Positions 4,193-21,220 of a stretch of 64,000 nt of DNA are shown one piece after another. Position 1 is the first letter of the stretch. Each line of letters opens with the position of its first letter. Below the pieces are notes generated by a model. That model saw only the letters and a program-made list of their open reading frames with translations, did no database searches and was not told the DNA's origin. Source of the DNA: a virus (Duplodnaviria; Caudoviricetes). A program made the translations under genes and the position numbers. The stretch is taken from positions 1-64,000 of IMG/VR virus record IMGVR_UViG_3300032305_002044; one strand, given 5' to 3'.

Positions 4193-6211
4193 ATGTTGTC
4201 ATTTAAGTTGACTGACGAGTTCATCTCGTCGTATGAAGGTAAAAAAGTTCCCTGGGGTTACCAAGACGCAGGTGGAAATGCGGTCGGGGAAATCACATTT
4301 CTACGAACCTATTCTCGTAAGAAAGAGGATGGCACTAAAGAGACTTGGGTAGAAGTTTGCCGTCGTGTTATTGAGGGTATGTACTCAATCCAGAAAGATC
4401 ACTGCAAGACCAACCGTTTGCCGTGGAATGAGAACAAGGCGCAAGCCTCGGCTAAAGAGGCTTTCGAACGCCTGTTCGAACTTAAGTGGACTCCGCCAGG
4501 CCGTGGGTTATGGGTAATGGGTACTCCTATTGTTACTGTGCAAAAGAATAGCGCGGCTCTACAAAACTGCTCATTTGTATCCACAGAGTCAATGACCAAG
4601 CACAACCCAGCCAAGCCATTTGCGTTCCTAATGGAAGCCTCAATGCTAGGTGTAGGTGTGGGCTTTGATGACAAAGGGGCAGACAAAGAGTTCACCATTT
4701 ACGCACCAACACAAACTATCAGCGAGTATGTAATCCCTGATACCCGTGAGGGTTGGGTGGAATCCACCTCTGCTCTGATTAACTCTTACCTACGCCACGA
4801 CCAGCCAACCCTTAGTTTTGACTATAGTGAAATCCGTAAAGAAGGAGAACCTATCAAGACGTTTGGTGGTACGGCAGCGGGCCCTGATCCGTTGAAGGCG
4901 CTTCACCAGCATATTATCCGAATCTTCAAAGATAGAGAAGGCACATTATTAACTAGAGTGGACATTGCCGATTTGGGTAACCTTATTGGAGTGTGCGTAG
5001 TGTCGGGTAACGTGCGCCGTTCTGCTGAGCTACTAATGGGTCGCTTGGATGATGATGACTTCCTTAATCTAAAAAATAGTGAGCGTTTTCCAGAGCGCAA
5101 TAGCTATGACAAGAAAGCTCCAGGTTGGGGTTGGATGTCCAACAACTCTGTTGGCATCTCTGTTGGGGATGATCTATCAGGAATTATTGACGGTATTGCT
5201 TTGAATGGTGAGCCTGGTGTTATTTGGATGGATGTAACCCGTAAGTACGGTCGCCTCATTGACCCACCAAACAACAAAGACTGGCGGGCAGCTGGATACA
5301 ATCCGTGTGCAGAGCAGAGCCTAGAATCGTTTGAGTGCTGTACTCTAGTCGAGACTTACCTTAACCGCCACGACGATATGGCAGATTACTTGCGAAGTCT
5401 AAAGTTTGCTTACCTGTATGCCAAGACGGTTACGCTTCTACCTACCCATTGGGAGGAAACCAACGCTATTATGCAACGTAATCGCCGTATTGGTACTTCA
5501 ATGTCTGGTATTGCTAACTTTGCTGATAAGAACGGACTACCTGAACTTCGTACTTGGATGGACTCTGGTTACGACACCGTGCTGAAGTACGACAGGATGT
5601 ACTCGGAATGGTTGGGTATTCGTGAGTCAATTAAAACTACTACCGTTAAGCCAAGCGGGACTGTGTCTATTCTAGCTGGTGAAAGCCCAGGTGTGCATTG
5701 GACTCCAGGTGGCAGGCACTTCTTACGAGCTATTCGCTTTGCCAATGATGACCCAATGTTACCTCTTTTTCAGTACGCAGGGTACACGGTTGAACCTGCT
5801 AGTGAGTCTCCAAAGACTACCAGCGTAGTTTTCTTTCCTGTGGAATCAGACGCTTCTCGTAGTGAGAAAGATGTCTCTATCTATGAAAAAATGTCTCTCG
5901 CTTCGGTAGCTCAACGCCATTGGTCAGACAACTCGGTCTCGGTTACTGTATCCTTTAATAAGGACACGGAAACTAAAGATGTTGGTACAGTCCTACACCT
6001 CTTTGACGGGCAACTCAAAACTGTTTCTTTCTTACCAATGGGAAACAAGACTTACCCGCAAATGCCGTACACACAGATAACTGCCGAACAGTATGAAGAT
6101 TACAAAATGAAACTGCTACCCATTGACTTTACAGATGTCTATGCAGGAATGGCAGCCGACGCTATCGGTGAGAAATACTGCAGTACGGATTTCTGCGAAG
6201 TACCGAAGTAA
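4193..6211 (+). CDS. nrdJ: Class II (adenosylcobalamin-dependent) ribonucleotide reductase, RTPR type
   Basis: PPGRGLW, LQNC, GNVRRSA, YNPCAEQ, TVKPSGT and C-terminal CSTDFC redox pair. Confidence 0.95.
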   Translation: MLSFKLTDEFISSYEGKKVPWGYQDAGGNAVGEITFLRTYSRKKEDGTKETWVEVCRRVIEGMYSIQKDHCKTNRLPWNENKAQASAKEAFERLFELKWTPPGRGLWVMGTPIVTVQKNSAALQNCSFVSTESMTKHNPAKPFAFLMEASMLGVGVGFDDKGADKEFTIYAPTQTISEYVIPDTREGWVESTSALINSYLRHDQPTLSFDYSEIRKEGEPIKTFGGTAAGPDPLKALHQHIIRIFKDREGTLLTRVDIADLGNLIGVCVVSGNVRRSAELLMGRLDDDDFLNLKNSERFPERNSYDKKAPGWGWMSNNSVGISVGDDLSGIIDGIALNGEPGVIWMDVTRKYGRLIDPPNNKDWRAAGYNPCAEQSLESFECCTLVETYLNRHDDMADYLRSLKFAYLYAKTVTLLPTHWEETNAIMQRNRRIGTSMSGIANFADKNGLPELRTWMDSGYDTVLKYDRMYSEWLGIRESIKTTTVKPSGTVSILAGESPGVHWTPGGRHFLRAIRFANDDPMLPLFQYAGYTVEPASESPKTTSVVFFPVESDASRSEKDVSIYEKMSLASVAQRHWSDNSVSVTVSFNKDTETKDVGTVLHLFDGQLKTVSFLPMGNKTYPQMPYTQITAEQYEDYKMKLLPIDFTDVYAGMAADAIGEKYCSTDFCEVPK

Positions 6212-9170: not shown

Positions 9171-9907
9171 TACGCACCTGCAAAAGTTTGTGTTGGGATA
9201 AGCATTATTACTGGTGAGAGCGGAGGATAAACCGTTCGGTGGTTCTCTCGGTCACAAGCAGACCACAACCTAAGTTGGGTAAGCTTGAGGACATCTTGGA
9301 ACAGACCAGTAGTTGTATCGTCACTCTCACCAGTAGTAATGGGATTAACCACGCGAGGTAAAGGTCGCAAGTTGAGACTCCTCCAATGCTCGCTTCGTCT
9401 AACGCGGTCTCCAATTTGAGGGAGACACCTCATAGATGAGCAAAGCGGAACGTATTTACCACGACCTTTACTCACCAGACACAGGCAAAATGCCCCTGAA
9501 CGTGCGTGGTTAAAGGGATTAGTATCAACAGAGAATAACTTACTACTACCAACCCTGACAACGCTAGGCGTGTACTTCGTGGTTCGAGTAGATACCGTTG
9601 TTGATACTAAGCTTGTTAGTAGGCGCAGAGGCACAGGCATTGTTGCAATATGCGAACGCAGGTCGTACGTTGCGCCTACTAAGCTTGTTAGTACGCCCAG
9701 AGGCTCAACCCCTACTAGTGAGCCACAGTCACTCTTACGCATAGCGCGTTCAGACAGGCACTCCGTTCGCAAGTGAGCGTTGGGCGTACTAAGTTTAGTA
9801 AGTGGCATAGGCGCAGGTACTTCTAGGACTGAAAGGAAGTAAGTATCCATTATGGAAGTCCTTGCCGAGATTTCACCAGTCGGTTTAACGCCTATGCCAC
9901 AAGTCAT
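9170..9907 (-). CDS. 245-aa ORF of atypical composition overlapping the structured array
   Basis: Open for 246 codons with TAATG overlaps at both ends; no recognisable fold. Confidence 0.5.
   Translation of the reverse strand: MTCGIGVKPTGEISARTSIMDTYFLSVLEVPAPMPLTKLSTPNAHLRTECLSERAMRKSDCGSLVGVEPLGVLTSLVGATYDLRSHIATMPVPLRLLTSLVSTTVSTRTTKYTPSVVRVGSSKLFSVDTNPFNHARSGAFCLCLVSKGRGKYVPLCSSMRCLPQIGDRVRRSEHWRSLNLRPLPRVVNPITTGESDDTTTGLFQDVLKLTQLRLWSACDRENHRTVYPPLSPVIMLIPTQTFAGA
9203..9900. ncRNA. Candidate structured RNA or ssDNA array: six tandem long-stem domains
   Basis: Closing stems 9203-9220/9324-9341, 9345-9354/9504-9513, 9519-9530/9599-9610, 9616-9627/9671-9682, 9688-9699/9781-9792, 9802-9813/9889-9900; GAG...CGT caps five of them. 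Confidence 0.75.
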
Positions 9908-11778: not shown

Positions 11779-13198
11779 TGTTAAGCACCTCCATAACAGG
11801 CTCGGCAGGAGTGGAGTGAGCCAAACCTAGTTCCTCCTCAATGTTGTAGCGGTAAGTGTCAATAACTAACTTGACACTTGCTTGCTCGCGCATTGGGAAT
11901 AGGTTGAGGTAGGCATAGATACCGTAGTCAATACCAAGACTGTTAATGTTACCCATTAGAGCAACAAGTGAACGAGTCGAGATCGGAGTCTGGATTTCCT
12001 CCTCCTCGAAACGGTCGCGTAATGAATTAGCCATTTCCAAGATTGCCTTACTTTTGATTAGTTTACCCTCAATGTCTGGGTCGTAAGGGAAGTCGAGGTG
12101 GTGTGTGAACCTATCGTTGAAAGCTTGGGATAGTTCCCGAGTACCACGATAGCCAAGATTACCGTCAGCAACAATGAGCAGATCAGGGTGAGCCTTGACA
12201 ACCTCCCCGTCTTTATCCGTTAGTTGGATTTCACGGCGGTAATCTAGTAGAGAATACAATTCCGAGGCGGTACGTTCAGGCATAAAGGTAATCTCACCAA
12301 TAAGCAAGACTCCACCGTTGCGTACCAAGTCTGTTATTGCCCCGTCTTGCCAATGGAAGTGACCGTCTGGGCTTGGGTTGTATCCACCAAATAGTTTCTT
12401 GGTATCCGTGCCAGCAGAGCAAGAGAAGTTGTAGTAACGGTATCCGCGAGCCGAGGCGTAAGCCATAACCGAGGAAGTCTTACCAGAACCAGCGTGACCA
12501 GTAATAAGCACGTTCTCGTCATTACGCATAGCAACGTCAAAGATATCAAAATCAGTAACATCACCTACGACCTTGCGGTTGATGTATTGCTTTGCCCACT
12601 TGATATCAGGCACACTTGCCAATTCCATTACCAAGCTTGGTGTGGTGGTCTGGCGAGAGATAGCAGGTTGGTTAGGTACTGCCACGTTAGAAATTGTCGG
12701 GGTGACTGGATTGCTAACAGGACTATTACCAAAGGCACGGTTAGGCACTAGGGCAGGAAACTCGATTGAGGTGTCCTTGTAACGGGAGTCGGTCAAGTAG
12801 ATAGCAAGACTGCTATCAGCGTTCTCGAAACGTGATACCAAGTCTGATACTAGATCGAAGTGGTTGAGAGTGTAATCGCCACCAAGCTTGGTAAGTTGAT
12901 CGGAGGCGGTGGTGGTCTTGTATCCCAAAGTAGTTACCTTGCCACCTTGAATAGCAAAGTGGTCATTGTCGGTGAGACGGATAGCAACAGGGTTCTTAAT
13001 GACACGGGTATTAGGTAGATCAGATAGAGGCGTTAGTGTCCAAGCCTCGGAACGACCACGCTTACCCGTACTGGTACGGTGGAATAATTGAATTGCGCCA
13101 ATGGTGTAGTTTGGCACGATAATAGTTTGGTCAAGACCTGCTTCGCCATTGTCACCAATGGTCTCGGACAGGGACTCAACGTAGAGTGCGATTGTCAT
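11762..13198 (-). CDS. MoxR/CbbQ/CobS-family AAA+ ATPase
   Basis: Walker A GHAGSGKT, WQDG, N.GY.GT..L..AF.DRF, ISTR; adjacent to vWA gene. Confidence 0.9.
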   Translation of the reverse strand: MTIALYVESLSETIGDNGEAGLDQTIIVPNYTIGAIQLFHRTSTGKRGRSEAWTLTPLSDLPNTRVIKNPVAIRLTDNDHFAIQGGKVTTLGYKTTTASDQLTKLGGDYTLNHFDLVSDLVSRFENADSSLAIYLTDSRYKDTSIEFPALVPNRAFGNSPVSNPVTPTISNVAVPNQPAISRQTTTPSLVMELASVPDIKWAKQYINRKVVGDVTDFDIFDVAMRNDENVLITGHAGSGKTSSVMAYASARGYRYYNFSCSAGTDTKKLFGGYNPSPDGHFHWQDGAITDLVRNGGVLLIGEITFMPERTASELYSLLDYRREIQLTDKDGEVVKAHPDLLIVADGNLGYRGTRELSQAFNDRFTHHLDFPYDPDIEGKLIKSKAILEMANSLRDRFEEEEIQTPISTRSLVALMGNINSLGIDYGIYAYLNLFPMREQASVKLVIDTYRYNIEEELGLAHSTPAEPVMEVLNNGNAN

Positions 13199-13292
13199 AG
13201 TGGATTGCTTCCTTTCGTAAAGCTTGATTTATCCAATACAAGGACAGTACCAGTTATGGGTGAAATTACATAATTATTATCAAAAGATTTAG

Positions 13293-13308
13293 TGTGATAC
13301 TCGTCACA
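13293..13308. promoter_or_regulatory. CRP/GlxR-type box 1
   Basis: TGTGA-TACTCG-TCACA. Confidence 0.75.
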
Positions 13309-13745
13309 TTTATTTAGACTAATCCCATACCACACATAGGGGTCAAAAGTCAATAGTTTTCTCAAACTATTTTTGAGAGCTTTCCACTTGGCGTTAACAA
13401 GCTTTCGGGGCGTATCCCAACACCTAATCTAAGAAATATCGGGGGGTTTCCTGAATTGGCTATCAAATACTAATAGAGATAGAGAGAGAGGATTGGATAC
13501 ACTTCAGGTCACTTGAACCACCTATGAACAACTTTAGTAATAGGACTGGTATCTCTCTCTCTCACTCTCTTATCACATAACAGACTTGCGATACTAGCTA
13601 ATAATCTGGTCACGCAAGCGGTCAGGCTTGTCCCATATCACAGCAGTAGCCGACTGTCAAATCGGCGAGCATAACCAGCTGGGTAAGCTCTCTCTGGCCT
13701 ATACAGCTCTTCTCTCTCTGTCAAGCCGACACGCCGTTTAAGCGG

Positions 13746-13761
13746 TGTGACTTTGGTCACA
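13746..13761. promoter_or_regulatory. CRP/GlxR-type box 2
   Basis: TGTGA-CTTTGG-TCACA. Confidence 0.75.
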
Positions 13762-13858
13762 TTGTTTGTGTCGGCTTTAAAGCCGAATTCAGCTTTAAAG
13801 CTGAATTCATTCAGGGACAGCCTTTAAAGGCTTAGGGTGGGTGGGCCAACACAAACAA
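13762..13858. repeat. Multi-hairpin cassette copy 1
   Basis: TTGTTTGTGTCGGC...GCCAACACAAACAA arms; three internal palindromes centred on TTTAAA. Confidence 0.9.
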
Positions 13859-13866
13859 ATGGGCGC

Positions 13867-13908
13867 AAAAAAGCCCCCGAGACTACCAAGTTTGGCAATT
13901 TCGGGGGC
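13867..13908 (-). terminator. Intrinsic terminator
   Basis: GCCCCCGA/TCGGGGGC stem plus T6 on the minus strand. Confidence 0.75.
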
Positions 13909-13914
13909 GACTTC

Positions 13915-14091
13915 TTACTTAACTATCTTGTCTTTGATCCTGATCTCAACGACTTCCTCTGTGTGGTAGAACTCCTTGACTAGAGCATACGCGGTATCCC
14001 ACAGTTCTAACTCAATTCCGCCGTGCTTGTGCAGTTCTACTAACTCATCGGCTAGTTTTGGTGCTATTTCGAACAGTTTGCTGATTTCCAC
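13915..14091 (-). CDS. Small hypothetical protein (58 aa; not in ORF track)
   Basis: GTG start with SD AAGGAGG; MEISKLFEIAPKLADELV... Confidence 0.65.
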   Translation of the reverse strand: MEISKLFEIAPKLADELVELHKHGGIELELWDTAYALVKEFYHTEEVVEIRIKDKIVK

Positions 14092-14241
14092 AGCGTTTCC
14101 TCCTTAATAGGTTGGTTAGGGGTAGAGAGAGCCTACCGCCTATTGGTTTTGTAAGCCCCCGCACTACTTGTCGCACCTGCTCGTTGACAGGACTGTAACT
14201 TTCGCTTTTGGGAGTTACTCTGTTACCCCTAACCAAGATTG

Positions 14242-14457
14242 TTATTCGTCGTAATCGCCGTCTATTACGTCGTGTACTAGTTCTGTTAGTAGGTTCTCTA
14301 CGAAATTGTCCATACGACCAAGTATTTCGCCCGCAACCCTTTCCCAGACTTCGTCAGTTACGACGTATTCGTGTTCCCGTTGATCCTCAATTAACTCTTG
14401 GAAACTTTGCTTGGTAAGCCGATACTGATTTTGGCATACTACTGCGTTCATTAACAT
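14242..14457 (-). CDS. Small acidic hypothetical protein
   Basis: Coupled ORF; SD GGAG. Confidence 0.65.
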   Translation of the reverse strand: MLMNAVVCQNQYRLTKQSFQELIEDQREHEYVVTDEVWERVAGEILGRMDNFVENLLTELVHDVIDGDYDE

Positions 14458-14612
14458 ACGGTGATCTCCCAACTTCTAGAGCAGTCAGAGTCCTCGGTAA
14501 AGTCCTCTGCTACCCACTCGTCTACGATAGCCATAGCCTCCTCCTCGGAATTGGCTTCTACCTCGTCTGTGTGACTGATAGTAAGTTTGGCACGTACTAT
14601 GTACTTTTCCAT
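14451..14612 (-). CDS. Small acidic protein with VEANSEEEA motif (53 aa; not in ORF track)
   Basis: MEKYIVRAKLTISHTDEVEANSEEEAM...; a motif common in small phage early proteins. Confidence 0.65.
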   Translation of the reverse strand: MEKYIVRAKLTISHTDEVEANSEEEAMAIVDEWVAEDFTEDSDCSRSWEITVC

Positions 14613-14614
14613 AC

Positions 14615-14791
14615 CTACACTCCCTGATTAACGGTAATGCCCCACTCGGACTGTGGTGTTAGGCAATCGAGCAACTGCTCAATTCCCTCTAATAACCCAC
14701 ACGCGGAACAGATACGAGTCTTGTTATCTGTGCGTGACAAGGCTGGTGCGTCAGGCATTATGCCTGTAATACAACGTGGGCAAGTACTCAC
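14615..14791 (-). CDS. Small Zn-finger protein (58 aa; not in ORF track)
   Basis: CPRC...ALSRTDNK..ICSACG; SD GAGAGG. Confidence 0.7.
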   Translation of the reverse strand: MSTCPRCITGIMPDAPALSRTDNKTRICSACGLLEGIEQLLDCLTPQSEWGITVNQGV

Positions 14792-14835
14792 GGTTGATAC
14801 CTCTCTCTAGTGGGAGTCTTTCTCTCACTAACTAA

Positions 14836-14889
14836 ATAGTAAGGGCATTTCTCGCTCACAGATTTAGAGATTATGTGATCTAGGTCACA
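14836..14889 (-). promoter_or_regulatory. Early promoter: CRP-type box 3, 32-bp conserved spacer, -10 TACTAT
   Basis: TGTGA-TCTAGG-TCACA at 14874-14889; spacer shared with four other copies. Confidence 0.75.
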
Positions 14890-14890
14890 G

Positions 14891-14966
14891 TTGTTTGTGT
14901 TGGGCTTTAAAGCCCAATTTTGCAGCTTTAAAGCTGCTGTTTCGGCCTCGACGCCGACACAAACAA
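14891..14966. repeat. Multi-hairpin cassette copy 2
   Basis: Same arms; TTGGGC-TTTAAA-GCCCAA, GCAGC-TTTAAA-GCTGC, CGGC-CTCGAC-GCCG. Confidence 0.9.
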
Positions 14967-15038
14967 AAAAAAACAGAGTGGCTACCAGGAAACAGGACTG
15001 GTAGCCACTCACAGCGCGGAGATTAGGGAAACGCGCTG
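14965..15038 (-). terminator. Tandem hairpins ending in an intrinsic terminator
   Basis: 13-bp stem GAGTGGCTACCAG/CTGGTAGCCACTC plus T-run; upstream CAGCGCG stem. Confidence 0.8.
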
Positions 15039-15040
15039 GC

Positions 15041-15556
15041 TTAGCAGATAGAGAACCCACCTGAGTATTGCAGAAACTCTGCAAACTCCTTTACGTTCTC
15101 TACCGAGAATGGGTATTGAGTGCCGAAGTGAGGCTTGTTACCTGCCCCGTCACACCCATTACACCAACCGTGTGTACGACCATACAAGGCTTGGTGTTCT
15201 AGTGATAGTTCTTTGTCTGACTGGTCAATACCGTGAGGACTATCTGCCCCACGAATACCTGTTGCGTGGCACAACTCGCAGTCTACCAACGGTAGTTCTG
15301 ACTGCTCCTTGCGGTACTCTGCCTCGTAAGCAGCAGTACGACCTGACTCAATTTCATTGAGTAACAGTTTTGCTAACAACTCTGACTCCTTGGCTTGCAA
15401 GCCGTCACCGTCGTTAGAGTGTCCACTAACAGACTTGGTTAGTTCTGGTGCGACATACTCACAGTAGTTCCAAAGTGGTCGCCAGTACCAAACATTATTG
15501 CGAAAGTATTCCCCTGTCTCGTTCACAGGTGCAATACCGATTACATCCATACCCAT
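15041..15556 (-). CDS. Hypothetical protein with a DnaJ-like Zn-finger insert
   Basis: MGMDV..., YFRNNVWYWRPLW, CELCHATG...CNGCDGAG, F.EFL..SGGF.IC. Confidence 0.75.
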   Translation of the reverse strand: MGMDVIGIAPVNETGEYFRNNVWYWRPLWNYCEYVAPELTKSVSGHSNDGDGLQAKESELLAKLLLNEIESGRTAAYEAEYRKEQSELPLVDCELCHATGIRGADSPHGIDQSDKELSLEHQALYGRTHGWCNGCDGAGNKPHFGTQYPFSVENVKEFAEFLQYSGGFSIC

Positions 15557-15585
15557 TTTATTTTCCTCATCTCTAGTTAGGTATT

Positions 15586-15850
15586 TGGGCAGTTTTTGTC
15601 TTACCCAGGACACGCTTACTTACATAGAGTCTAACACTAAGCCTGACTCGTATCCGCAGACGGGGCATTCATACGCTAGTCCCACATCGTGCAGGTAATA
15701 AATCTCGTCTTTCTGATCTCCAGACGAAACCGTATCTGTTTTGGCATCAACGGTTAGTTTAGACTCGCAAGACTCACAAGTTGTTTTGTACATAATCACC
15801 TCTGTTCCTAACCTCTATTTTGGTAGGCAGTTTTTGTCATACCTAGGACA
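15586..15850 (-). repeat. Two copies (15586-15612, 15824-15850) of a ~27-nt intercistronic pseudoknot-like motif
   Basis: Minus strand TGTCCTRGGTAWGACAAAAACTGCCYA with a compensatory change. Confidence 0.7.
15620..15793 (-). CDS. Small Zn-ribbon protein (57 aa; not in ORF track)
   Basis: CESC...CPVCG; SD GAGGTG. Confidence 0.7.
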   Translation of the reverse strand: MYKTTCESCESKLTVDAKTDTVSSGDQKDEIYYLHDVGLAYECPVCGYESGLVLDSM

Positions 15851-15857
15851 CACTTAC

Positions 15858-16064
15858 TTAGACCTTGACTCCGCGAGGCGGGCGCACACTGCCTTGACTG
15901 ACAGTGTAGGTTGCTTCCCAATGATAATTCAAGATGTCGAGCTCATCTGTATTATGTGACTTAGCCGTCAGGCTAACCAGATTTGCTACCTCGTCTAGAG
16001 TTAGGAAGTCATCTCCCCCGTAAGTAATCTCTAGTATCATTGGTATTCTTGCTTTGTGACTCAT
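15858..16064 (-). CDS. Hypothetical protein
   Basis: SD GAGGTG; first gene after its promoter. Confidence 0.7.
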   Translation of the reverse strand: MSHKARIPMILEITYGGDDFLTLDEVANLVSLTAKSHNTDELDILNYHWEATYTVSQGSVRPPRGVKV

Positions 16065-16096
16065 TTAATCACCTCGTCTCCTAATCTCACTCTCTT

Positions 16097-16150
16097 AGTA
16101 TGCCCTAGTATTTCGCTCACGCATTTAGACTTTATGTGAGATAGATCACA
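16097..16150 (-). promoter_or_regulatory. Early promoter: CRP-type box 4, 32-bp spacer, -10 CATACT
   Basis: TGTGA-GATAGA-TCACA at 16135-16150. Confidence 0.75.
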
Positions 16151-16157
16151 TAGCGGA

Positions 16158-16227
16158 TTGTTTGTGTCGGCCTTTAAAGGCCGTTTGGGCACAGCTGGCC
16201 TTGAAGCCAGCCAGCCAACACAAACAA
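16158..16227. repeat. Multi-hairpin cassette copy 3
   Basis: Same arms; CGGCC-TTTAAA-GGCCG, GCTGGC-CTTGAA-GCCAGC. Confidence 0.9.
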
Positions 16228-16231
16228 AAAG

Positions 16232-16263
16232 TTATCCACAACTTATCCACAGGCTGTGGATAG
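16232..16263. promoter_or_regulatory. DnaA-box cluster 1 (three boxes)
   Basis: TTATCCACA at 16232 and 16243; inverted TGTGGATAG at 16255. Confidence 0.8.
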
Positions 16264-16289
16264 TGGGGCAGGTTGCCCTGCCCCACTAT
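16260..16289 (-). terminator. Hairpin after the DUF932 gene
   Basis: ATAGTGGGGCAGG/CCTGCCCCACTAT 13-bp stem. Confidence 0.65.
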
Positions 16290-16292
16290 TGA

Positions 16293-17309
16293 TTACAGAC
16301 CAGCAGTCTCGAGCACTGCCTTGCGAATGCGCGACTTCTCGGCATTCACTTGAGCGTCGAACCCACTAGCACTGGCGAGAATACCAGCGTTGGTACCCTT
16401 GCGCCCTAGTCGGTAGTAATCGACACGTTCGGTTAGCGCATTGAGCGCGCCCCAGCCTGTGCCCTTGATACCCGTCTGGGTAGGCCCGCGCCACAATTCC
16501 CACATAGTGTCGACTTTATCGTCGTACTTGGTGAGAACTGCTTTACCAGCAGTCTGGCGATCTGGCGCAGGGTAAAGACCCTCGATGATTTCGCCGAACT
16601 GCTTATCGGTGATAGCCGATTGGAACAGCGCGTTGGCTTCAACCTCGAACTGGTCAAGATAGGTAAACGAGATACCTAGAGCCTCGCGAGCCTGAGCCAC
16701 GCGATCTTGCGCGGTCGCTGTATGGCGAACCTTGAAAGACTGCTTGGTACCCATGCCCAAAGCCATGTTAAGCGTATTCTGGCAAACCACCCGAACTGGC
16801 GTGGTCATAGCCTGAATTGCGCTAGAACCGTCGTGTGAGGTCGTGACCAGTAAGTAAGACTTGGTAACGTCGCCGATACCAGCCTTGTCAAGCACGATGT
16901 CTTTCCCGAGCTTAAGGCTTCCGAATACTGTGCGCCCGTTGCGAATTGCTCCAGCAGACTCCCAGTAACCTCCACCGTCGAGCAGGTTGTCACCGAATGC
17001 GAATAAATCCTCATTCTGGTAGGTGTGGTAACGATCTCCCACGACAGCCAACACGTCTGGCGTGTTGTTGTTCAACACGTCGTTGCGAACCACCATGAAA
17101 CTAGGTGATTTGGTGGTGTAACCCTCGGGCAGGATTACATCCTCTAGTCGGACATCCCAGCCAGATAGCAATGCGCTATCCAACATTTGCGAGGTCGTGA
17201 CGTGTTCATCTTCATCGAAGATGTGCTGAGCCAGACCATGCCATGCAGGCGCGCCACGCAGTGCAAATGCGACGTCGCCATTGGCGTTCATCTCTAAGTC
17301 GTGTGCCAT
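16293..17309 (-). CDS. DUF932-family phage/plasmid protein
   Basis: MAH.LE, PAWHGL, TSHDGS, TPVRVVCQNTL, RHT, GT.WG.LNALTE..D. Confidence 0.9.
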   Translation of the reverse strand: MAHDLEMNANGDVAFALRGAPAWHGLAQHIFDEDEHVTTSQMLDSALLSGWDVRLEDVILPEGYTTKSPSFMVVRNDVLNNNTPDVLAVVGDRYHTYQNEDLFAFGDNLLDGGGYWESAGAIRNGRTVFGSLKLGKDIVLDKAGIGDVTKSYLLVTTSHDGSSAIQAMTTPVRVVCQNTLNMALGMGTKQSFKVRHTATAQDRVAQAREALGISFTYLDQFEVEANALFQSAITDKQFGEIIEGLYPAPDRQTAGKAVLTKYDDKVDTMWELWRGPTQTGIKGTGWGALNALTERVDYYRLGRKGTNAGILASASGFDAQVNAEKSRIRKAVLETAGL

Positions 17310-17390
17310 AAGGCAATCACTCCCAATCTCGTGAGAACCCCTGAATACGTAAGTATCTCTCACGCCAGCCGTTGCTTCTCAACTGTTCCA

Positions 17391-17444
17391 ATAATAAAGT
17401 AGTTATTCGCTCACGAGTTTAGACTTTATGTGATCTACATCACA
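17391..17444 (-). promoter_or_regulatory. Early promoter: CRP-type box 5, 32-bp spacer, -10 TATTAT
   Basis: TGTGA-TCTACA-TCACA at 17429-17444. Confidence 0.75.
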
Positions 17445-17453
17445 CTGGGCCGA

Positions 17454-17525
17454 TGTTTGTGTCGGGCTTTAAAGCCCGATCAGCTTAAAGCTGCTGCGGC
17501 GGCCTTGAAGCCGCCGACACAAACA
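17454..17525. repeat. Multi-hairpin cassette copy 4
   Basis: Same arms; TCGGGC-TTTAAA-GCCCGA, CAGC-TTAAA-GCTG, CGGCGGC-CTTGAA-GCCGCCG. Confidence 0.9.
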
Positions 17526-17537
17526 ATTTTCAAGCGA

Positions 17538-17565
17538 CAAGCCAGCCCCCGTAGGGGCTGGCTTG
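17538..17565 (-). terminator. Hairpin after the DUF4192-like gene
   Basis: CAAGCCAGCCCC/GGGGCTGGCTTG 12-bp stem. Confidence 0.65.
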
Positions 17566-17582
17566 GCTTATTGCTTGCAGGG

Positions 17583-18101
17583 CTAAACCGCACCCTGCAA
17601 ACACTTGTCAATGGGATTATCAGCAAGTGATGCACCCCAAACGTGGGAAGGTACATTGTGCCTTATGGCTATGTCCAGTAGTTGCCAAAGGCTGTATTCG
17701 CCAAAGTCCTCGGTTTCGAGAACGGCGGTTACAGGTTCTTTGTTGTCCTCTAGCCAGTACGAACCTGCCCAGATAGCCAAGATAGCAAGGCGGGCAGTAC
17801 CGTTTGCCTTAGATGCCCAGTCCGCTAGCGTTTCGCGGTAACGCGTTAGGGTTTCCGTATCCTCGGCCACGTGCAACTCGTACATCTTGCGAAGTACCCC
17901 GTCACGTATTCTAATGTCGGCTAGTGATGATGCAGACTTAACGTCAAACTTACTGACTTTGCCTACTTCTAGATGCTCGATAATTCCGTTGAATCTTTCC
18001 AACCTTTTCTCGGGCGTGGTAATGCGTGGCAGGGGTAATTCTTTCCTGCCGTTGTCATTAGCGACTATGGCTAACGCAACTTCTTTTGTCATTGTGTCCA
18101 T
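17583..18101 (-). CDS. DUF4192-like protein
   Basis: SLADIRIRDGVL...YSLWQLL..AI..NVP..W pattern. Confidence 0.5.
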   Translation of the reverse strand: MDTMTKEVALAIVANDNGRKELPLPRITTPEKRLERFNGIIEHLEVGKVSKFDVKSASSLADIRIRDGVLRKMYELHVAEDTETLTRYRETLADWASKANGTARLAILAIWAGSYWLEDNKEPVTAVLETEDFGEYSLWQLLDIAIRHNVPSHVWGASLADNPIDKCLQGAV

Positions 18102-18146
18102 TAGGGACTCCTGTCTCTTTAGCTGAGCGGTTTCTCAACTGTTCCA

Positions 18147-18200
18147 ATAGTAAGCCCATTATTCGCTCAGCAATTTAGACTTTCTGTGATGTACGTCACA
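18147..18200 (-). promoter_or_regulatory. Early promoter: CRP-type box 6, 32-bp spacer, -10 TACTAT
   Basis: TGTGA-TGTACG-TCACA at 18185-18200. Confidence 0.75.
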
Positions 18201-18205
18201 CCGCG

Positions 18206-18288
18206 TTGTTTGTGTCGGGCCTTGAAGCCCGACCCCCTTCGGGGGAATAGCGGATATGGCTTTAAAGCCATATGCCGCCAACACAAAC
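18206..18288. repeat. Multi-hairpin cassette copy 5
   Basis: Same arms; GTCGGGC-CTTGAA-GCCCGAC, CCCC-TTCG-GGGG, ATATGGC-TTTAAA-GCCATAT. Confidence 0.9.
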
Positions 18289-18331
18289 TTTTCTACAGGT
18301 TGTCCACAGGCTGGGGATAACCTGTGGATAG
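18289..18331. promoter_or_regulatory. DnaA-box cluster 2 (three to four boxes)
   Basis: TTTTCTACA 18289, TTGTCCACA 18300, inverted TGGGGATAA 18312 and TGTGGATAG 18323. Confidence 0.75.
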
Positions 18332-18360
18332 CCACCCCGTAGGGAAGTCGGGGTGGCTAT
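18328..18360 (-). terminator. Hairpin at the end of an operon
   Basis: ATAGCCACCCCG/CGGGGTGGCTAT 12-bp stem. Confidence 0.65.
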
Positions 18361-18368
18361 CAGGTTAG

Positions 18369-18533
18369 TTAGACTCGCGCTAGTTGGTTGGCGTCGCACT
18401 CCTCCTCTGTATGGTTGTCTGCCTCATCGGGTAGGAACATCGCATTGCAATAGCGACACTCAAACTCGACACCAATAGTAGGCGCGCCAGGCACGCGGAC
18501 GTAGTGCATTGTCATTTTGCGGTAGTAAGTCAT
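18369..18533 (-). CDS. Small Zn-finger-like protein (54 aa; not in ORF track)
   Basis: FECRYC...H....C; TAATG coupling. Confidence 0.6.
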   Translation of the reverse strand: MTYYRKMTMHYVRVPGAPTIGVEFECRYCNAMFLPDEADNHTEEECDANQLARV

Positions 18534-18706
18534 TAGAAGTCCCACTCATCCTTTAGCTGATCGTGAATTGGCGTGCCGTTTGCCAATAGACGTTGGCGTT
18601 CTTGCTGAGCGTAATACTCGCGTGAATTAACAATTAACACGCGGTATCCGTATCCACCTATGAAAGACACTAGGCAGAGTAACAGGGTGAACCCGTTTAC
18701 AAACAT
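18533..18706 (-). CDS. Small single-pass membrane protein
   Basis: Start reassigned to MFVNG (SD GGAAGG); hydrophobic N-terminus. Confidence 0.6.
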   Translation of the reverse strand: MFVNGFTLLLCLVSFIGGYGYRVLIVNSREYYAQQERQRLLANGTPIHDQLKDEWDF

Positions 18707-18781
18707 AACTTTCCCTTCCGTTATTGGGGCTAGGTAGCCCACCCGATAGCCAACCTTTCGGTTGGCTATCAGGCTAGTCAC

Positions 18782-19114
18782 CTAGACTACGGTGTAGAGA
18801 GTGCCGTCACACTTGACGGTTAGCACACCCTCTAGACCTACCGAGCGGATGCCCTGAACTTTGTCAGTATCGCCCGCCTCAACCTTAGCCTTGCCGATAG
18901 CAACAGCCTTAGTTGAGAGTAGGACATACAAGCCCTTAGCCTCTGCATCATAGGCAGGAGTACCGCCAGCAAGAAACTTGCCGTATGCGTTCGTGGCAAC
19001 CATAGTCGCCACTTCGCCAGTCTTGCGTTTGGTGTAAGTAACACTAAAGAACTTGTTACCCAACCCTTGCAGGAACGCGCGCAACTCGGCGCGTTCTATT
19101 GTTGCCTCACTCAT
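18782..19114 (-). CDS. Hypothetical SH3/Sm-like fold protein
   Basis: FFSVTYTKRKTGEV..M...IRSV pattern. Confidence 0.65.
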   Translation of the reverse strand: MSEATIERAELRAFLQGLGNKFFSVTYTKRKTGEVATMVATNAYGKFLAGGTPAYDAEAKGLYVLLSTKAVAIGKAKVEAGDTDKVQGIRSVGLEGVLTVKCDGTLYTVV

Positions 19115-19169
19115 AGTTAATTCCCTATCTCTTAGAGTGGTTAGCGTTGAGCGGTTGCTCAACTCTTAA

Positions 19170-19223
19170 AGAATACAGTCGTATTTCGCTCACGAGTTTA
19201 GACTTTGTGTGATGTATCTCACA
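19170..19223 (-). promoter_or_regulatory. Early promoter: CRP-type box 7, 32-bp spacer, -10 TATTCT
   Basis: TGTGA-TGTATC-TCACA at 19208-19223. Confidence 0.75.
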
Positions 19224-19424
19224 CGCTCACAATTTGACAAGCCCCTTCTCTCAGGCTATGCACCCCCTACCCCTTAAGCGACACGCCCGAGCGCGTGGGG
19301 CCAGGTGTCACGCTCTGGTAACGAGCTTATTATCGATACAGTAGCCTGATTTGGAGTTGTTTTTAATAGAATAGGATGGTTTTTATCGGGAAAACGGGTT
19401 TGAGGGGATATAAACAATTTTGAT

Positions 19425-19440
19425 TGTGAGCTGGATCACA
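19425..19440. promoter_or_regulatory. CRP/GlxR-type box 8
   Basis: TGTGA-GCTGGA-TCACA. Confidence 0.7.
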
Positions 19441-19533
19441 TTTTTGGCTTTGTGGGCGCGCCAAAGGTGTCAAAGATGTCATAGTTGTATTTTTAAGACG
19501 GACAGGGTTCGACGGGCTAGCTATCATTATTGG

Positions 19534-19758
19534 GTGTTTACTACATGGTTTTTAGAACAGCAAGATAGAACTGATGAAATTGGCAAGGTATCTCGGGTTT
19601 GCTACAGCGATTACAACGCGGGGTGTGCCATGATGTACCGTGATCCTATCGGCTGGGCAGAACACTTCAAGAGTTCACATAGTAAGCATTATGAAAATGT
19701 AAAAAGTGTCTTGGGGGATGCTTATTTAGAGTACATAGCACAGTCAAGCGTAAAATAA
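19534..19758 (+). CDS. YozE-like small helical protein, probably leaderless
   Basis: -10 TATCAT ends 7 nt before the GTG; FTTWF.EQ.DR.D.IG pattern. Confidence 0.55.
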   Translation: MFTTWFLEQQDRTDEIGKVSRVCYSDYNAGCAMMYRDPIGWAEHFKSSHSKHYENVKSVLGDAYLEYIAQSSVK

Positions 19759-20321: not shown

Positions 20322-20807
20322 ATGGCTATTGATTCAGGACCTCAGTTTATAGGCATGCCTATTGGGCGTATCGAATCAGATACAAGCGACCTTCCTGTAG
20401 AACGACACGGTGTCCGCAACAATAATCCTTATTTCTATAACGAAACTGGTAAACAACACAGAATTGCTATTAGGCCTTTAAAGAGTGATCCACAAGATGA
20501 AAGCAAGCCTAACCCTGATTTTATTGCTGCAATGAACTGGGAACCAAAAGACAGCACCTTTATGCAAAAACAGCGCCCAGATGATTCTTGGCCTACTAAA
20601 GCAGGGGAAATTAACGACATCTGGACCAGGGATGACCACAGACGTAAAGGTCTAGCTACTTTCATGTACGGCTATGCAAAGAAAATGTCAGAGTCAGACC
20701 CTACAGTTGCACCACCAGTACATAGCACCCACCTATCCGACGCAGGTGAAAAATGGGCAAAGAGCACTGGTGACCCAGTACCTAAAAGAAAGTACAAGAA
20801 CTACTAA
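20322..20807 (+). CDS. GNAT-family acetyltransferase
   Basis: I..IWT..DHRRKGLAT.M (acetyl-CoA motif A); HS..LS..G..WA. Confidence 0.75.
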   Translation: MAIDSGPQFIGMPIGRIESDTSDLPVERHGVRNNNPYFYNETGKQHRIAIRPLKSDPQDESKPNPDFIAAMNWEPKDSTFMQKQRPDDSWPTKAGEINDIWTRDDHRRKGLATFMYGYAKKMSESDPTVAPPVHSTHLSDAGEKWAKSTGDPVPKRKYKNY

Positions 20808-21220
20808 TGGCAATTGATAAAGGACAGCAATTTAGTTATTCTGACATTGAAAACGCGCACCCAAATATGGTTGATGAAGGCCTTGAAGACGCTGTAAGAG
20901 CTTTAGCTAATGGTAAAGAAGGTAATTCTTTTGGGGAACATTCCGACCCTCCAGAAAATTACGAACTCCGCAATGTACCTATTTCAAAAATTTCACAATA
21001 TATAAAATACGATGATTCAGACCCTCGTATGAGACGGGCTGCTATGGGGTACAAGAATGAAGACCAAGTTCCACCAACTGTTTTAGTAAACCAAGCTGGT
21101 ATGCATGAAATTGCTGATGGGCACCATCGTATTGCAGCAGCCACACATGTAGGGCTTACCCATGTACCAGCGTATGTTGCAGATAGTTTTGAAGAACGCC
21201 CTCATCCAGGATTTGAGTAA
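20807..21220 (+). CDS. ParB/Srx N-terminal-domain protein
   Basis: PP.VL...EIADGHHRIAAA..G...VPAYV. Confidence 0.8.
   Translation: MAIDKGQQFSYSDIENAHPNMVDEGLEDAVRALANGKEGNSFGEHSDPPENYELRNVPISKISQYIKYDDSDPRMRRAAMGYKNEDQVPPTVLVNQAGMHEIADGHHRIAAATHVGLTHVPAYVADSFEERPHPGFE

Follow-up and report, generated by a model that had tools for sequence, protein, structure and literature searches.

What are the five long inverted repeats that separate small genes in the phage record IMGVR_UViG_3300032305_002044, and at which level, DNA or RNA, do they act? We analysed the first 64 kb of this 93,416-bp IMG/VR record (CheckV completeness 98%), a stretch referred to below as the window. A first-pass annotation of the window had described five cloverleaf-like cassettes with constant arms, hairpins with variable stems and fixed centres, and had proposed a DNA-level structure assignable to no known element. 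We find that the cassettes form a real and conserved family that had not been described as such, with 110 distinct cassette sequences on about 40 IMG/VR phage contigs. Judging from sequence comparisons, the reading that we favour, tentatively and with a probability of about 0.4, is that the cassettes are DNA-level palindromes that mark the boundaries of self-contained gene units and are recognised by a factor, rather than structures of the sense RNA.

Five cassettes and the family to which they belong

The five cassettes, none of which is assigned a strand, are present where the annotation had placed them, with two ends shifted by 1-2 nt (at C4 and C5): C1 at 13762-13858, C2 at 14891-14966, C3 at 16158-16227, C4 at 17453-17526 and C5 at 18206-18290. 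They are delimited by the arms TTGTTTGTGTYGG and CCRACACAAACAA, whose inverted ends are identical over 12-13 bases, with one mismatch in the left arm of C4 (ATGTTTGTGTCGG) and with CCAACACAAACTT as the right arm of C5. The arm pattern has 14 matches in the window where 4.2 are expected, a number reached by none of 100 shuffles, and in the entire record these five are the only inverted arm pairs. As single-stranded DNA each cassette folds, on either strand, with -22 to -27 kcal/mol compared with about -10 kcal/mol for dinucleotide-preserving shuffles of both strands (z = -5.4 to -8.0; none of 200 shuffles equals it), and the commonest fold is a closing stem with two to three hairpins; in C2 the closing stem is 8-13 bp and is followed by three hairpins. 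C1 contains three palindromes of the GC-TTTAAA-GC type together with the run CCCACCCACCC on the sense (minus) strand, and is the last cassette of the array, lying before an AAA+ (MoxR/CobS-like)/VWA operon.

The fixed centres are real. The ten-base palindrome GCTTTAAAGC is present in six copies in 93 kb, against about 0.1 expected by our own estimate, and a looser form, [GC]CTT[TC]AA[AG]G[GC], has eight copies in the genome; every copy of either form is within a cassette.

An exact scan for arm pairs recovered 31 stretches, which belong to about 25 viral contigs between 10 and 98 kb long and contain up to five or six clustered copies each, and 80 loci fetched through the neighbouring DUF932 gene added about 17 further contigs. 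The phages carry 4-10 copies each, the cassettes are 61-144 nt long, and the arms are about 40-120 nt apart. The arms share a basal motif of 11-12 bp with the general form TG(T/C)T-N2-4-GTTGG, which mostly keeps one form per genome and changes from lineage to lineage (TGTTTGTGTTGG, TGTTTGGGTTGG, TGTTGAGTTGG, TGTTACGTTGG and TGCTGGGTTGG, as well as TGTT(A/G)GGTTGG). The left and right arms deviate from it about equally (27 and 24 deviations), so that the greater conservation of the left arm known from ESAS is not seen. A literature search for the arm words returned unrelated primer matches only. No canonical-arm cassette is present at 56 of the 80 DUF932 loci; about ten of these have variant arms, and the remainder have no cassette, their intergenic regions holding other features, for example tRNA genes. 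We conclude that the family marks a single clade. In eight of the cassette-less relatives (L077, L084, L088, L095, L101, L107, L108 and L116) a conserved small hairpin of the form (C)CTGRGCATGAYG-(T/A)AAAACTGC(Y)C is located in the first 60 nt or so past the DUF932 stop codon, and tRNA genes often follow it.

Across this family the cloverleaf appearance turns out to be local. The cloverleaf with TTTAAA centres is found only in this phage and its close relative G001, which is 88% identical, and two features of the first description, hairpin stems that vary yet always pair and a hexamer centre, stand for these two genomes as lineage-specific elaborations; they do not define the family, in which a single long stem with a small asymmetric centre usually fills the interior. 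That centre typically consists of a small GC hairpin and about 12 unpaired A/T-rich bases, and its most enriched five-base word is AAAGC (or GCTTT), present in 50 of the 110 cassettes compared with 9 +/- 2.7 in shuffles. In this phage and G001 the same word takes the form of GC-TTTAAA-GC mini-palindromes, hence the cloverleaf look.

Each array ends, ahead of the AAA+/VWA operon, with a cassette that is longer than the others and that in at least eight genomes has CCCACCCACCC on its sense strand. On the template strand of C1 this run reads GGGTGGGTGGG (13832-13845), a possible G-quadruplex motif, and the same motif is located in the last cassettes of relatives at L040:7845-7857, L041:13384-13415, L042:8312-8335, L015:2879-2890 and L023:327-444. 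Next to this last cassette comes a separate conserved promoter, GGCGTGTCGGCTTGACA.

Copy-specific pairing at the joints between gene units

The interiors of the cassettes are unrelated in sequence between copies, both among the five here and among 70 in relatives. Nonetheless, the 5' and 3' halves of one cassette pair with each other from the base onwards, by Watson-Crick pairs without interruption over a median of 20, whereas halves crossed between cassettes pair only through the shared arm word; 18 or more pairs are formed in 44 of 83 own pairings and in 13 of 5474 crossed between different cassettes. We also tested for covariation in an alignment of 33 cassettes, using 500 shuffles of the pairing partners and, separately, partner columns that were slid out of register. 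Paired cells amount to 94.1%, compared with 82.7 +/- 0.9% after shuffling and 35-48% with slid columns; 72 cells are doubly changed (22 +/- 5 in shuffles), and the covariation score is 0.285 (0.098 in shuffles), none of the 500 shuffles reaching any of these values. Ten of the 19 consensus pairs are changed on both sides, and one column pair is divided into 15 U-A and 15 C-G. Orthologous cassettes give a similar picture, with 117 of 122 pairs invariant, four doubly compensated, one broken and none present as a G-U intermediate, while unpaired columns vary in 30% of cases. In about ten cassettes the same deviation is found in both arms, while the sister cassettes of that genome keep the consensus.

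The cassettes sit within a block of minus-strand genes (approximately 6.9-19.2 kb) that has plus-strand genes on both sides. Following minus-strand transcription, the order at each joint is stop codon, GC-rich hairpin, cassette, TGTGA-N6-TCACA box, conserved promoter core and next gene, so that the annotation was correct in placing the cassettes downstream of terminators and upstream of CRP boxes. The upstream hairpins, all on the minus strand, differ in their tails. T1 (13867-13908) is a GC-rich hairpin followed by T6 and stops 8 nt short of C1, and T2 (14967-15009) has a 12-bp stem followed by eight T that run into the C2 arm. A clean T-run is thus present at T1 and T2 and is missing at the other three: T3 (16262-16287) has none of its own, T4 (17538-17565) forms 12 pairs followed by a weak T-tract and then C4, and at T3 and at T5 (18328-18362) DnaA boxes take its place. 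Between T3 and C3 there are three DnaA boxes (16232-16263; TTATCCACA twice and one inverted CTATCCACA, with one extra box in G001), and between T5 and C5 three DnaA-box-like sites, one of them overlapping T5 (18300-18332; TTGTCCACA, and TTATCCCCA and CTATCCACA, both inverted); neither cluster is assigned a strand.

On the other side of the cassettes, a CRP-like box at 13746-13761, again without a strand, adjoins C1 and is followed by a promoter of a different conserved type, GGCGTGTCGGCTTGACA, which serves the AAA+/VWA operon. The remaining joints share a minus-strand arrangement of CRP-like box and promoter core, at 14848-14889 downstream of C2 (box at 14874-14889; core ..TCTAAA-N4-GTGAGCGA..), 16109-16150 downstream of C3 (box at 16135-16150), 17403-17444 downstream of C4 (box at 17429-17444) and 18159-18200 downstream of C5 (box at 18185-18200). 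The core that follows the box at most joints is AAGTCTAAA-N4-GTGAGCGA (14848-14873, 16109-16134, 17403-17428 and 18159-18184), and the same box and core are repeated at the first promoter of the minus-strand block (19182-19223, minus strand; core at 19182-19207), which has no cassette, no upstream gene and no terminator. The cassette is therefore a feature of the place where two units meet rather than of the promoter as such. No consistent -35/-10 spacing is apparent by eye within the cassettes and a consensus scan matches them no more often than shuffles, so we do not regard them as containing a promoter.

This layout is shared by the family. Among 78 distinct oriented cassettes, 76 have a hairpin of -15 kcal/mol or lower within 60 nt upstream (median -29 kcal/mol), separated from the cassette by a median of 3 nt, and a downstream hairpin of that strength is present in 11. 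The type of factor box varies, being CRP-like here and in G001, a DnaA box (CCTGTGGATAAC) at 16 of 57 distinct cassettes, and repeated words of the ATAACGA type in other lineages; in many relatives (for example L010, L023 and L036) a single CCTGTGGATAAC directly follows the cassette, in the position of the CRP-like box here. A perfect copy of the host-type parS core (GTTTCACGTGAAAC) is located within about 20 nt of a cassette in three relatives (L042:8442, L047:4316 and L059:2299; L011:2468 and L029:2291 are the same sites under other locus numbers), and there is none in this window.

Comparison with G001 shows how differently the parts of a joint change. C1 to C4 are 95-100% identical between the two genomes, the terminators 80-98% and the adjacent promoter cores 64-78%, and the interior of C5 has been replaced (60% identity only). 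At all joints of G001 (L040) the promoter core is a different motif, AAATTGTTAT..GGGTTTGGTA, with boxes and cassettes conserved; this looks like a concerted change along with a putative promoter-reading factor. At larger distances it is the units that differ. DUF932 is flanked by cassettes in five of six genomes compared (in G005 no cassette was detected upstream of it), and the content and order of the other units between cassettes vary between genomes. One gene pair is separated by a full terminator-cassette-promoter joint in G002 and G004 and overlaps by 4 nt in G003. Both findings lend indirect support to one role that the annotation listed, recombination sites for gene shuffling. Approximately 40% of the DUF932 loci (L046-L125, from our count of their lengths) end at a contig end within 2.5 kb of the gene, and the near-complete records G005 and G006 are broken inside the cassette array; the region evidently breaks assemblies, which repeats or strain-level variation could cause.

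Proposed DNA-level recognition and the competing explanations

Four observations favour a DNA-level role over one in the RNA, and on this choice the annotation's preference is upheld. Both polarities of the arm word occur in the same niche, T-first cassettes having the word followed by its complement (5' to 3') and C-first cassettes the reverse, and the array of G006 has about five C-first and then four T-first cassettes. The asymmetric centre points either way among cassettes of one genome. The stems are mostly perfect Watson-Crick. Finally, single copies of the arm word exist outside the arrays: the exact arm core GTTTGTGTTGG is present, unpaired, at 4706-4716 (minus strand) within a ribonucleotide reductase gene and at 9186-9196 (plus strand) at the 3' end of a 245-aa open reading frame (ORF). 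These two copies compare with 0.03-0.08 expected, three relatives have 3-5 each, and a control pattern in which the word is read backwards gives one match in all genomes searched. Such exact single copies, some of them inside genes, suggest that the arm word can be recognised by itself.

Each unit consists of its own promoter, one to four small genes and its own terminator, with one long inverted repeat at each joint between units, and we propose the following reading. The basal word TG(T/C)T-N2-4-GTTGG would be the recognition sequence of a trans-acting factor, probably encoded by the phage and possibly by the host, and folding of the element in vivo, as a single-stranded hairpin at replication or as a cruciform under supercoiling, would be the reason why the rest of the repeat stays self-complementary. 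Once bound or folded, an element placed between the terminator and the following promoter may act as an insulator or road-block, such that each unit answers only to its own CRP-box or DnaA-box promoter. As every joint repeats arm, box and promoter as one motif in a constant orientation, such places would in addition serve the gain, loss and exchange of units.

Several points weigh against this proposal. Copy-specific pairing over 20-30 bp is not required by protein binding alone, and template switching at replication (quasi-palindrome correction) could keep palindromes perfect without selection for structure. A cruciform is unlikely to extrude readily from duplex DNA when its centre has 15-30 unpaired nucleotides. 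Folding is slightly better on the sense strand in 43 cassettes and on the antisense strand in 23, and G-U pairs make up 4.8% on the sense and 3.0% on the antisense strand. Alignment end-points fall at cassettes in 2.95% of cases where cassettes occupy 1.9% of the sequence, only a weak, 1.5-fold enrichment. No binding factor for the arm word was found. A 137-aa ORF at 20807-21220 (plus strand) with weak ParB-like and DNA-binding PHROG matches lies nearby; it was considered as the reader of the arms and rejected, as it is absent even from G001, the sister genome, and from four other relatives.

The strand preference raises the best placed of the alternatives, which we consider unlikely: an RNA hairpin in read-through transcripts, either a 20-30-bp duplex cut by an enzyme of the RNase III type or a fail-safe stop or 3' stabiliser between messages. 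RNase III acts on long perfect duplexes, the sense-strand fold of several canonical-arm cassettes is favoured by about 9-13 kcal/mol, and T3 to T5 lack a clean T-run. The bias itself is ambiguous as evidence for RNA. It reverses in C-first cassettes, where the antisense strand is better in 7 and the sense strand in 1, and control terminator hairpins have about the same G-U bias (7.0% compared with 4.1%); since it tracks arm polarity and is no larger than in the control, it may reflect a general strand skew. The absence of G-U intermediates among orthologous cassettes and the flipping centre also count against a sense RNA, strong canonical terminators are located directly upstream at T1, T2 and most relatives, and a generic duplex explains neither the conserved, lineage-specific basal word nor its single copies inside genes.

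A related notion is that the cassette simply supplies a terminator tail, as the T-rich arm of T-first cassettes itself provides a U-tract, a point that also counts for the RNA reading. This holds for T-first copies, in which at least five T are present in the 8 nt past the hairpin in 40 of 67 and a T-run of the hairpin's own in only 6, but it fails in general because C-first copies place the A/C-rich arm there, often with a separate T-run. The cassette is not itself an intrinsic terminator, since no U-run follows its 3' arm, that arm being A/C-rich in T-first copies and the factor box coming next; the real terminator is the separate hairpin upstream. No RNA family was recognised either. Rfam at gathering scores has no match in the window, a permissive search of 13500-19400 gave two chance-level matches far below threshold, and ARAGORN predicts no genes in 13000-19500, which sets aside a tRNA, a tRNA-like element or a known RNA family.

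Somewhat less probable still is that the arms are operator pairs for a phage regulator of the adjacent promoters, comparable to the stoperators of actinobacteriophages, and that the interior pairing is a by-product, the palindrome having grown inward from the two inverted sites by template switching. The arm word is lineage-specific, mostly uniform per genome and also present singly, as operators might be, and perfect Watson-Crick stems with double changes are what template switching would yield. The arms are also always upstream of a promoter, and there are precedents in actinobacteriophages, namely ESAS in Cluster K (PMC3203893) and the palindromes of Cluster O (PMC4351075). ESAS go with translation start sites and are inverted repeats of 17 bp whose spacer varies and whose consensus depends on the subcluster (PMC3203893), and the Cluster O palindromes are more than 30 copies of TGTTCGG-N3-CCGAACA distributed over the whole genome (PMC4351075), which have TGTT...AACA ends in common with the arm word. 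Both resemble the cassettes in being repeated inverted motifs at gene junctions of the non-structural arm, with a lineage-specific consensus, an A/T-rich centre and no assigned function (PMC3203893, PMC4351075), and a consensus mostly uniform within the genome is what we find here. They differ in their spacers, which are 3-13 bp compared with 40-120 nt, and in having neither a copy-specific stem nor a fixed coupling to terminators (PMC3203893, PMC4351075). That arm spacing, with both relative orientations, is unusual for a dimeric regulator, and the first promoter of the block is of the same class and has no arms, which ties the sites to the joint rather than to the promoter. Moreover, the interiors are conserved above background between this phage and G001, and this and the enrichment of the AAAGC centre are unexpected for a by-product.

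Two further explanations, both of which we regard as doubtful and to about the same degree, draw on the replication and recombination proteins of the phage, which include a DnaC-like loader, a DnaB-like helicase, a primase, a family-A polymerase, a UvsX-like recombinase, a Cas4-like exonuclease and a RuvC-like resolvase. In the first, the palindromes would be sites of cassette exchange without a dedicated integrase, analogous to attC and run by the UvsX-like, Cas4-like and RuvC-like proteins: they would fold on single-stranded DNA at replication, be recognised through the basal word and be cut or strand-invaded, so that whole units are excised, inserted or swapped. Like attC sites (57-141 nt), they are imperfect palindromes with conserved outer boxes (ends of 11-12 bp) and a variable, sometimes branched centre, with one palindrome per gene-cassette end and a similar length, and some arm variants (e.g. 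GTTAGGT and GTTGAGT) fit GTTRRRY / RYYYAAC. The canonical arm GTTTGTG does not fit GTTRRRY, however, and an attC array has a single orientation, whereas here the polarity is mixed within one array and the units have their own promoters and terminators. Tyrosine recombinases (PF00589) are absent from five genomes that are 91-100% complete, with 14 of 14 control genomes matched, and an integron-like attC array was rejected on the missing integrase gene and the two polarities.

The second would make the cassettes single-stranded replication or recombination signals, that is, hairpins for priming or helicase loading, or break-prone palindromes that drive the shuffling of units. The enzymes to use such signals are encoded, no replication initiator was recognised among the phage proteins searched, DnaA boxes abut C3 and C5 and follow cassettes in relatives, and the centre is A/T-rich. 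Plasmid origins offer parallels, with large inverted repeats that carry priming signals on both strands in oriV of RSF1010 and DnaA-box hairpins in the 'A site' of R6K. An origin, however, does not need 4-10 copies in 5-8 kb, each at a terminator-promoter joint, and we could establish no strand or polarity rule relative to one point beyond one switch per array, possibly inherited from a common ancestor. The DnaA boxes, whose place in many lineages is taken by CRP-like boxes or by other repeats close to the promoter, look like transcription-factor sites, which counts against a replication role.

A host repeat family was one of two findings that the annotation had named in advance as fatal to its proposal; it was looked for and none was found. 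An exact scan of 185,579 species genomes gave no matches, and a degenerate scan gave 33 isolated single matches in unrelated phyla, with no phage genes nearby, compared with about 17 expected by our own estimate. PF01797 (the Y1 transposase/RAYT) has no match in this 98%-complete genome, while control genomes were matched, and no target-site duplication is visible in the cassette flanks. REP and BIME elements are enterobacterial extragenic palindromes, and BIMEs have been proposed to bind gyrase or IHF, to insulate topologically or to stabilise the 3' ends of mRNAs, functions akin to the boundary role that we favour for the cassettes. The cassettes resemble them in having inverted conserved motifs, a variable linker and hairpins, and in lying just past the 3' ends of transcription units; REP elements differ in being host-chromosomal, present in hundreds of copies and RAYT-linked. 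That the cassettes are selfish small palindromic repeats of the REP/MITE type, without function for the phage, is very improbable: inverted ends, a length of 61-144 nt and a position between genes would fit, as would a joint that one genome has and another lacks at the same gene pair, but the placement is strict, the cassettes are under purifying selection, the interiors of copies in one genome are unrelated, which is unexpected for transposition of a master copy, and no RAYT gene or target-site duplication was found in this genome, no tyrosine recombinase gene in the five genomes and no such family in hosts. With Rfam, ARAGORN, the two GTDB scans and the literature search all empty, the earlier statement that the cassettes cannot be assigned to a known element still applies.

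Modular gene units in an actinophage-like genome

The genome in which the cassettes are found is that of an actinophage-like myovirus, with a tail sheath, an SPP1-type portal and a T4-type large terminase among its proteins. The nearest named relatives of the terminase and the AAA+ protein are in Streptomyces, Gordonia and Brevibacterium phages at 39-55% identity, and a megablast search with the 6-kb cassette region found no named-phage relative; at such distances there is no annotated homologue of the joints to read. Opposite the array, the plus-strand arm begins in each of the six genomes compared with the gene for a conserved protein of about 75 aa that has no PHROG match (19420-19758, plus strand, in the window; L040:1868-2092, L041:7410-7637, L042:14062-14298, L043:12977-13204 and L044:10226-10486).

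By genomic role, the nearest system is that of the promoter-early stem-loop (PeSL) cassettes of the T4-type phages phi1 and RB49 (PMC2839356). In both, joints that combine a stem-loop or terminator with an early promoter are repeated around small accessory genes in a plastic region (PMC2839356), the directly repeated joint offers homology for the exchange of units, and relatives differ by the gain and loss of units. Every joint here has the order terminator, cassette, box and promoter. A PeSL has one promoter and one GC-rich stem-loop that serves as the terminator (PMC2839356), whereas here a separate terminator is followed by a second and longer palindrome with a lineage-specific word of 11-12 bp and a copy-specific stem. 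The phages described here are unrelated to the PeSL phages. Exchange between PeSL copies would be recognised by mosaic breakpoints or mini-circles; what we see here is that units differ in content and order, that a joint can be present or absent, and that end-points are enriched 1.5-fold at cassettes. If the cassettes are boundary palindromes, as we favour, their joints would serve gain, loss and exchange of units in the way of PeSLs.

Theories of modular phage evolution have long proposed that conserved boundary sequences serve gene exchange, and clear, structured and widely conserved examples are few, PeSLs being the best known. The cassettes add about 110 natural variants with a simple grammar that runs from the terminator through a lineage-specific word, a perfect stem peculiar to the copy and its AAAGC centre to a factor box and promoter. 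The presence of host-type sites at the same joints (CRP/GlxR and DnaA boxes, and parS in relatives) suggests that each accessory unit is separately wired to host physiology. If the arm word does have a dedicated reader protein, that protein would represent a new DNA-binding or structure-binding specificity; and if the doubtful possibility of exchange at the palindromes were true, they would amount to a phage counterpart of attC recombination in integrons and would give the long-postulated 'linker sequences' a concrete example.

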